From: Mobula hypostoma
Taxonomy: Eukaryota
DNA: 64,000 nt
Assembly: GCF_963921235.1 (NCBI RefSeq)
Contig: NC_086107.1
Location: 101,992,001 to 102,056,000 of the forward strand
Direction: 5' to 3'
Shown here: positions 53,496 to 54,963 of the stretch, piece after piece
Layout of the letters: each line of letters starts with the position of its first letter
Position numbering within the stretch: position 1 is the first letter of the stretch
Position numbers and translations under genes: made by a program
Notes under the pieces: model-generated
Told to the model about the DNA's origin: nothing
Database searches by the model: none
The model's input: only the letters and a program-made list of their open reading frames with translations

Positions 53496-53994
53496 AACAG
53501 TTTTGTTGCTATTTTGGGCATTTCTTGATCAGGGCGGCCTGCAGATAACGAACAGCACGGGGCTACATTGAATTGAACTGAGCTTAACTGAACATGCCTG
53601 GGCTCTTCCAATTTTATGTTTATATTCTGTGTTTTACACTCTTTTTTGCCATTTGCGTGATTTGGATTTTTTTTGTGTGCGCGTTGCTCAAGCGGGGTTT
53701 GATGTTTTTCTTTGAATGGGCTCCTCAGTTTTCTTTCTTCCGTGGCTGTCTGTGGGAAGAGGAATCTCAGGGCAGTAGACTGCATAGTTTGTATGTATGT
53801 AGACATACGTCGTTTGACAATAAAGTTATTTTGCATCTTTGAATCTAGAGGCTTTTGAAAGGGACGCCAAAGGGATTCTGCTGGTTGGGGTGTGCTATAA
53901 TTGTAAATATGTAATTCTGTAAATTCACCTGACCACATCTCAAATCTTAAAGTTCTGTGATTATAGCAATTGAAACTGTAGTTAATCGTTCATT

Positions 53995-54225
53995 CACAAA
54001 AAATGCTGGTGAACACAGCAGGCCAGGCAGCAACTATAGGAAGAGGTACAGTCGACGTTTTGGGCCGGGACCCTTCGTCAGGTTCAGTTAGTCCTGACGA
54101 AGGGTCCCAGCCCGAAACGTCGACTGTACCTCTTCCTATAGTTGCTGCCTGGCCTGCTGCGTTCACCAGCAATTTTTGTGTGTGTTGCTTGAAATTCCAG
54201 CATCTGCAGATTTCCTTGTGTCTGT
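53995..54225. mobile_element. Palindromic Penelope-derived mini-element with back-to-back hammerheads
   Basis: ~90-bp inverted arms; 14-bp duplication GTTAATC(G/A)TTCATT at 53981-53994 and 54226-54239. Confidence 0.82.
54090..54125 (+). ncRNA. Minimal type-I hammerhead ribozyme
   Basis: AGTC-CTGACGA-AGGGTCCCAGCCC-GAAA-CGTC-GACT, core intact. Confidence 0.78.
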
Positions 54226-54963
54226 GTTAATCATTCATTGTTGTCTTTGTGTTGAAAAACTACAAACATCATGTTGAGAGAGTGAGACTCTCTTGGATCC
54301 TCCCATTCTCTCTCTCTCTCTCTCTCGGAGGTTTGCTGTGTGAATAAAAGACCTTTATATTTCCCAGTTACAGCTTCCGTGTGGCTCAGTTTTAGCCAGT
54401 CACGACAGTCAGTCATAACAACCGCTAGTTATCTCAGTGTAGCAACATTCTGACCACTTTGCACTGAAGCCAACTTTTTCTTTGTTCTGTGTTCTTCCTT
54501 GTAAAAATTTATGCTTAATTTACCTTTTTCTTGTGAATGTTGCTGATAGGATGGTATGTGCCTGTGATGCTACTGAAAGTAAGTTTCATTGTGCACATAA
54601 CAATCAACGTGAAAACAAGAAAATCTGCAGATGCTGGAAATGCAAAGCAACACACACAAAATGCTGGAGGGACTCAGCAGGTCAGGAAGTATCTATGGAA
54701 AAGAGCAAACAGTCAACGTTTTGGGCTGAAACCCTTCATCAGGACTTTGTAACAGTAGCTCGTCCTTGTAAGACAATGACAGTTGAAGTATAGAGAGATT
54801 TAATATGTGCCTAAAATTATTTTCATATGTGTCTCCGATTATTTAAACAATTGACAATAATGGCTGGCTGATAATATCTTTATATTCCTCATTCCCTGAA
54901 TGATAAGCAGGTAAGAATTTTATCTGTGTCCATAGCCCAGTAATGGGTATTTAAAATTTGCAG

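Follow-up and report, generated by a model that had tools for sequence, protein, structure and literature searches.

The question raised by this locus of Mobula hypostoma is how a short palindromic insert carrying two hammerhead motifs on opposite strands came to lie in a 64,000-nucleotide stretch of contig NC_086107.1 (64 kb; hereafter the window). A first-pass annotation of the sequence had offered two answers: a mobile family of ribozyme hairpins, retrozyme- or MITE-like and mobilised by the machinery of Penelope-like elements (PLEs), towards which its title leaned, or the outcome of severe 5' truncation and inversion upon PLE insertion. Our analysis shows that the insert consists of two 5'-truncated PLE pLTR ends placed head to head between target-site duplications (TSDs), and makes it very probable that it is a one-off, inactive product of a single insertion which does not copy itself, and that the hammerheads are passengers of the pLTR; within this explanation the two-primer route, the inactivity and the single occurrence are the parts that we infer.

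The insert is bounded by a core duplication of 14 bp with one mismatch (53981-53994 and 54226-54239), which was already seen in the first-pass annotation and which can be extended to 18 of 19 bp with one gap (53976-53994 on the left and 54222-54239 on the right, both on the forward strand), a score that 3 of 20,000 randomly drawn pairs of 40-nt segments also reached. Between these TSDs lie a left arm (53995-54082, reverse strand), which is an inverted 5'-truncated PLE pLTR end without a tail that extends from -28 to +59 as counted from the ribozyme cut site, a right arm (54083-54180, forward strand), which is a 5'-truncated pLTR end covering -38 to +59, and a PLE tail of about 41 nt (54181-54221, forward strand), which is attached to the right arm only and where loose ends of contig pieces were found at 54213, 54216 and 54221. 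The inverted segments of 88 nt each (53995-54082 and 54093-54180) are complementary at 84 positions (95%) with four mismatches, confirming that two inverted copies of a Penelope terminal repeat are present; the arms are unequal, however, and the tail had gone unmentioned. The spacer of about 7 nt that had been placed between them probably belongs to the right arm as its own upstream sequence (54083-54092), since 6 of the 32 listed contig pieces start at 54083 or 54084 and continue into that arm, and the two arms would thus be joined blunt between 54082 and 54083. Three of the four arm mismatches are CpG-type transitions and the TSD mismatch is likewise CpG-type, the pattern expected of neutral decay.

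The total length of the insert is 227-231 bp, with no ORF remnant, and the two stop-free frames that run across it (82 and 78 codons) both fall below the Pfam curated cut-off, so the earlier label of non-coding stands. A contig of DNA run X1 agrees with the right junction (54199-54297) at every position. Folding of the palindrome region gave -187.4 kcal/mol with a z score of -23.6, and none of 200 shuffled sequences was equally stable; the suggestion that a transcript through the insert forms long dsRNA is thus supported as a prediction, provided that the insert is transcribed. Self-comparison of 53000-55200 revealed a dispersed older copy at 54.6 kb and otherwise no direct repeats of the unit in that interval. 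We found no empty-site paralogue of the insert flanks within the 64-kb window and no empty orthologous site of the locus among the 15 joints listed (of 250) from four DNA runs, the contig of organism B being uninformative on this point because it ends within the left TSD. The left flank (53860-53975) is itself moderately repeated, with contig depth up to about 2,100, so that other parts of the genome may contain empty sites in paralogous sequence.

To what kind of element the arms belong is best seen from other copies in the window, where an nhmmer search with the right arm as query returned 24 matches at E values up to 1. One of these copies, a head-to-head PLE insertion of 1.1 kb (24643-25773), has a perfect 15-bp TSD, a tail confined to its left arm, and the broken C-terminus of a GIY-YIG ORF (25115-25504; Pfam PF01541, E 5.7e-4, 20.6 bits, below the curated cut-off of 22.6), for which ray proteins were the best among 16 matches, at 88-90% identity, as would fit a myliobatiform ray as host. 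The repeat that flanks this broken ORF end (24.9-25.5 kb) is homologous to the target arms, with 72 of 101 and 97 of 137 positions identical. The same copy sits in a LINE, of which a paralogue (34855-34723) spans both flanks with a 14-base overlap, so that the TSD is present once in the empty paralogue; the GIY-YIG remnant and the TSD together tie the repeat to a PLE and show that insertion generates TSDs of such a length. Because identity between the target arms and the copy with the ORF is no more than about 71%, the target arms appear by sequence to represent a sister subfamily whose direct parent element was not seen. The ray homologues of the ORF have a Cys-rich linker ahead of the endonuclease, which points to a Neptune/Nematis-type clade as such clades are described in the available part of PMC8557442.

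Taken together, the pLTR linked to a GIY-YIG ORF, the head-to-head inverted 5'-truncated copy and the one-sided tail of about 41 nt are the features of an endonuclease-positive (EN+) PLE. Insertion units of EN+ PLEs described in Arkhipova 2013 (PMC3846280) and Craig 2021 (PMC8557442), as far as the accessible text of each goes, likewise comprise truncated pLTRs head to head, an optional tail of 30-40 bp restricted to one arm, and a TSD that encloses the entire unit, and the longer window copy shows the same link of the repeat to a C-terminal GIY-YIG ORF. The target differs in its extreme truncation to 227-231 bp without an ORF remnant, in its tail of about 41 nt, and in its TSD of 14-19 bp in comparison to 8-10 bp in the rotifer PLE examples of those sources. 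The closest relative in the window (39086-39287) is a near-perfect palindrome with 0-1 nt at its centre, a 14-bp TSD with one mismatch and no tail; neither of its arms has a CUGANGA core, which shows that palindromic units of this kind do not depend on ribozymes. TSDs were convincing at the target and at the copies near 24, 39 and 6 kb and looser at 43 kb, with lengths of 10-19 bp and unrelated sequences, while the pair at 56 kb is flanked by poly-T only and the single arms at 54.6 and 55.8 kb have none.

The hammerhead motifs were mapped by hand to the minimal type-I motif defined by Cervera and de la Pena 2014 (PMC4209133). The forward-strand copy (54090-54125) is a complete minimal type-I hammerhead, with helix I at 54090-54093 and 54122-54125, the CUGANGA core at 54094-54100, helix II at 54102-54113, the GAAA and NUH elements, a loopless palindromic helix III, and a predicted cut after 54121. 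In agreement with the minimal PLE hammerheads of that paper, all core bases are present, as are the extra base between positions 9 and 10.1, the G-C pair at 10.1-11.1, the 4-bp helix I and the loopless palindromic helix III; the earlier reading of this ribozyme as intact is thus upheld. The reverse-strand copy (54050-54082) is defective, for its core carries G12A at 54061 and three of the four bases of the helix-I 5' strand are absent, having been removed by the junction. CpG decay had been put forward as a possible cause of the change from GAAA to AAAA, and it is a CpG-type change at a site where the family letter is often C; it is not the sole defect, because the truncation of helix I means that this hammerhead was probably never complete. 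What had been called two back-to-back hammerheads is accordingly one complete minimal motif and one truncated and mutated motif. No hammerhead family of Rfam was matched at gathering score in the 64 kb, where one tRNA was the sole hit, and a relaxed search of 53900-54800 at E values up to 10 gave nine matches without a hammerhead, among which the miRNA matches are hairpin artefacts; the ribozyme assignment is therefore based on the manual mapping to the published minimal motif.

Folding calculations suggest that the complete motif would have little opportunity to act. When the motif was folded alone (54085-54135), helices I and II formed at predicted probabilities of 0.89-1.0, while with the whole right arm and tail included the pairing probability of helix I was about 0.03, and in the whole element every helix pair had a probability of 0.0 and forcing the ribozyme fold cost 54.1 kcal/mol. 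It is thus predicted that the hairpin locks both ribozyme copies in a read-through RNA. Minimal PLE hammerheads are described as not cleaving as monomers and cleaving weakly as dimers (PMC4209133, in the part accessible); the minimum-energy structure that we obtained for two forward motifs was not the canonical active dimer, and the opposite-strand motif presumably cannot act as a dimer partner within the same RNA. We consider ribozyme activity at this locus unlikely.

A mobile palindromic family should be recognisable by a shared centre, and the first-pass annotation had proposed a comparison of centre junctions on this ground. Within the window, 17 arms picked from the repeat matches were mapped onto the target and yielded seven head-to-head pairs, all seven with different centres. 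Relative to the cut site, the inner ends of the two arms are at -28/-38 in the target, -20/-19 in the 39k pair, -10/-27 in the 43k pair and -31/-18 in the 6k pair; among the remaining pairs they are at +58/+13 (40k), at -6 with the second end degraded (56k), and far upstream (24-25k). As to the outer ends, in six of the seven pairs one arm stops between +38 and +69 and its partner between +84 and +104, while the 39k pair has no tail. The 12-, 14- and 16-mers across the target junction each occur once in the 64 kb.

The same comparison was extended to contigs of four DNA runs from four related organisms, mapped to 53798-54397, of which 54,245, 41,724, 30,778 and 19,747 matched. All 15 joints listed (of 250) differ from one another and are represented by 1-3 contigs each. 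Contig depth at 54083-54085 was 0.001-0.40% of that at 54068 in the four runs, with organism D as an example at 4.6 at position 54085 against an arm depth of 1.66 million, and 0 of the 32 listed contig pieces crossed from 54082 to 54083, although depth is not copy number and contigs break at hairpins, so that little weight attaches to the lack of bridging pieces. The centre depth in run X1 was about 3,480-3,700 in comparison to 7.9 for a locus-specific contig, and in X5 it was about 950; right-arm-only copies explain at least part of the X1 value, and X1 may be the source sample. As far as it was run, the junction test counts against a mobile palindromic family of the retrozyme- or MITE-like kind, and the differing junctions support the alternative of truncation plus inversion. 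Of 21 loci from a scan of metagenomes for palindromic centres none represents a copy from a ray, and the element was matched there over 13-17 nt at best; viral contigs gave 0 matches to the element.

Three of 30 listed joint ends fall at +1, the first base past the predicted ribozyme cut (such as the joints 54053>54122 in X9 and 54042>54122 in X1), and in one listed joint both arms begin at +1; these ends may record cleavage in vivo, or may be due to the 6-bp self-complementary site, CpG decay or alignment edges, and three joint ends also fall at -11. Five arms (54082, 6011, 43252, 54746 and 55792) have inner ends grouped between -27 and -31, where the ribozyme has its 5' edge, a grouping for which an alignment-edge effect is possible. 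In the copy at 25.6 kb this point is preceded by a pyrimidine run and CAG, resembling a splice acceptor; the intron of the D. virilis PLE is reported to end at helix I (PMC4209133, in the part accessible).

The two arms of a locus share more than their orientation. At two pairs of positions (54107/54068 and 54142/54033) both target arms carry rare letters from which 90-98% of the family depth differs; six sites separate both target arms from both arms of the 39k pair, and across the two loci no arm-specific site was found. Identity between arms within a locus is 84/88, 81/89 and 107/111, in comparison to 68/80 to 83/98 between the target and the 39k pair. The similarity within loci and the lack of arm-specific sites indicate that both arms came from one source variant per locus, and the shared letters in combination with locus-specific junctions are most simply read to mean that every insertion produces its mirror half afresh. 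The same shared letters would be expected from a palindromic master copy or from gene conversion between arms, and the point alone is not decisive.

These observations are consistent with an insertion in which nicks introduced by the PLE protein, one in each strand of the target, would lie 14-19 nt from each other and the 3' end at each nick would prime reverse transcription on the element RNA. Reverse transcription would start at two neighbouring internal sites, about +59 and about +100 from the cut site, which would account for a tail on one side. Synthesis of each cDNA would end after 90-140 nt, a short way beyond the ribozyme core, and the two cDNA ends would then be joined blunt by host repair. 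A precedent is found in Poseidon of Anolis (PAc), for which Frangieh 2024 (PMC11167929), in its accessible part, describes a purified PLE that cuts and extends both target strands in vitro, with two adjacent internal start sites of reverse transcription downstream of the hammerhead defining the tail and with no need for ribozyme cleavage; Poseidon PAc differs from the target in family and in distances.

A different route to the same kind of dead PLE by-product is that the cDNA folded back, primed itself and was copied into the second arm, an account that competes with the two-primer step only. It has been proposed for palindromic PLE junctions (PMC3846280, in the part accessible), and it fits the rare letters common to both arms, the centre overlaps of 4-5 nt in the 43k and 6k pairs, and those listed joints in which 3-6 letters fit both sides. 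Against it, the end of the long target arm is not complementary to the start of the short arm, the 0-1 nt between the arms of the 39k pair is too tight for a priming loop, and the purified PLE extends both strands (PMC11167929). We therefore regard fold-back as possible, though doubtful, at the target; as the 43k and 6k pairs have overlaps, both routes may occur. A further alternative is an assembly or sequencing fold-back artefact. Fold-back reads can generate palindromes, and no contig among those listed spans the whole insert, yet the arms differ at four sites, a TSD and a one-sided tail are present, and the right junction is matched exactly in X1, so that the chance of an artefact is close to nil.

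The other readings give the insert a life of its own. That it belongs to a small, non-autonomous palindromic family, retrozyme- or MITE-like, transcribed and moved whole by PLE machinery, would agree with its own TSD, with the letters common to both arms, with centre depths in X1 (about 3,600) and X5 (about 950) above single-locus depth, and with the ability of pLTRs to mobilise sequence in trans (PMC3846280, in the part accessible). This is improbable in view of the differing centres of the window pairs and listed joints, the junction words without a second copy, the nearly vacant centre in organism D, a unit that is not tandem and has an asymmetric tail in place of true terminal inverted repeats, and ribozymes that are predicted to be blocked or are broken. 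A variant in which a by-product turned into a source, its hairpin transcript being re-inserted whole through its two outward-facing ends with the exact junction kept, is to our judgement no easier to believe; the family so founded, which would number a few hundred copies at the most, be confined to the closest species and seed dsRNA sources across the genome, is just as improbable. Co-option of the insertion by the host as a source of dsRNA (for siRNA or A-to-I editing) or as an RNA switch could draw on the very stable predicted hairpin, on the siRNAs produced from inverted Penelope copies in Drosophila (PMC3681739, in the part accessible), and on the neighbourhood of a tRNA-Arg gene 724 bp away and, at a distance of about 9.5 kb, of a weak SMIM-like exon. 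The arm differences are nevertheless uncompensated CpG-type decay, no host exon adjoins the insert among the 53 frames scanned, and the contigs that match the arms number in the tens of thousands in each run, with nothing to single out this copy; co-option is thus very improbable.

The one-off insertion product that we favour is also ordinary, its layout and opposite-strand pairs of minimal hammerheads being already in print. Such pairs, about 100-700 bp apart and probably derived from truncated PLEs, are reported in PMC4209133, as far as its accessible text goes; the target differs in that its motifs are 7 nt apart and the second is truncated and mutated. A literature search by titles and abstracts returned no paper on ray PLE palindromes, and the supplements of PMC4209133 and PMC11167929 may hold examples. 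Animal non-LTR retrozymes (PMC7229834; bioRxiv 10.64898/2026.07.22.740005; both in the accessible parts) resemble the target in being small, non-coding and PLE-related with a type-I hammerhead. They consist of head-to-tail tandem repeats with same-strand ribozymes releasing circular RNAs, whereas the target is one unit, arranged head to head, in which one minimal motif is complete; the assignment to non-LTR retrozymes was rejected because the target lacks head-to-tail units that each have a complete same-strand hammerhead. In contrast to MITEs, the inverted repeat of the target does not extend to both ends of the unit, one of which carries the tail, both the long TSD and the centre vary between copies, and the unit is derived from a retroelement. 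MITEs, too, are short and non-coding with inverted repeats and a TSD, and were rejected as a class because the target has a one-sided tail and TSDs of 10-19 bp among the window copies in place of terminal inverted repeats and a fixed short TSD.

On its own the target is of little consequence, being a single case among the very numerous stumps that PLE insertion has left in a ray genome. Each stump, however, records both priming sites, the stagger of the cuts and both stop points of one insertion, and a genome-wide catalogue of junctions could be used to test two primers against fold-back in the unproven second-strand step of PLE insertion, and to ask if the 5' end is ever defined in vivo by ribozyme cleavage. 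Where stumps are transcribed, they would offer a plentiful supply of substrates to A-to-I editing or siRNA production, and if the palindromic-family reading were true, it would reveal a novel mode of origin of a non-autonomous retroelement.

Several further features were observed in the course of the analysis. The tRNA gene near the insert is a tRNA-Arg(CCT) on the reverse strand (54963-55036, 64.8 bits). A reverse-strand frame at 44078-44527 has a weak match to SMIM5/18/22 (E 2.2e-5, below the cut-off) and is possibly an exon of a small membrane protein, and two exon-like forward-strand frames (11980-12411 and 21443-21919) have no Pfam match, the former of which may resemble ANKFN1. In metagenome Ga0058703, two AT-rich loci of an unrelated organism (L007:1-120 and L011:1-130) carry a palindrome with hammerhead-like GAAAC-GTC ends; they have nearly the same centre and different outer flanks, both lie at contig ends, and they possibly represent a palindromic family of that organism with a shared junction.
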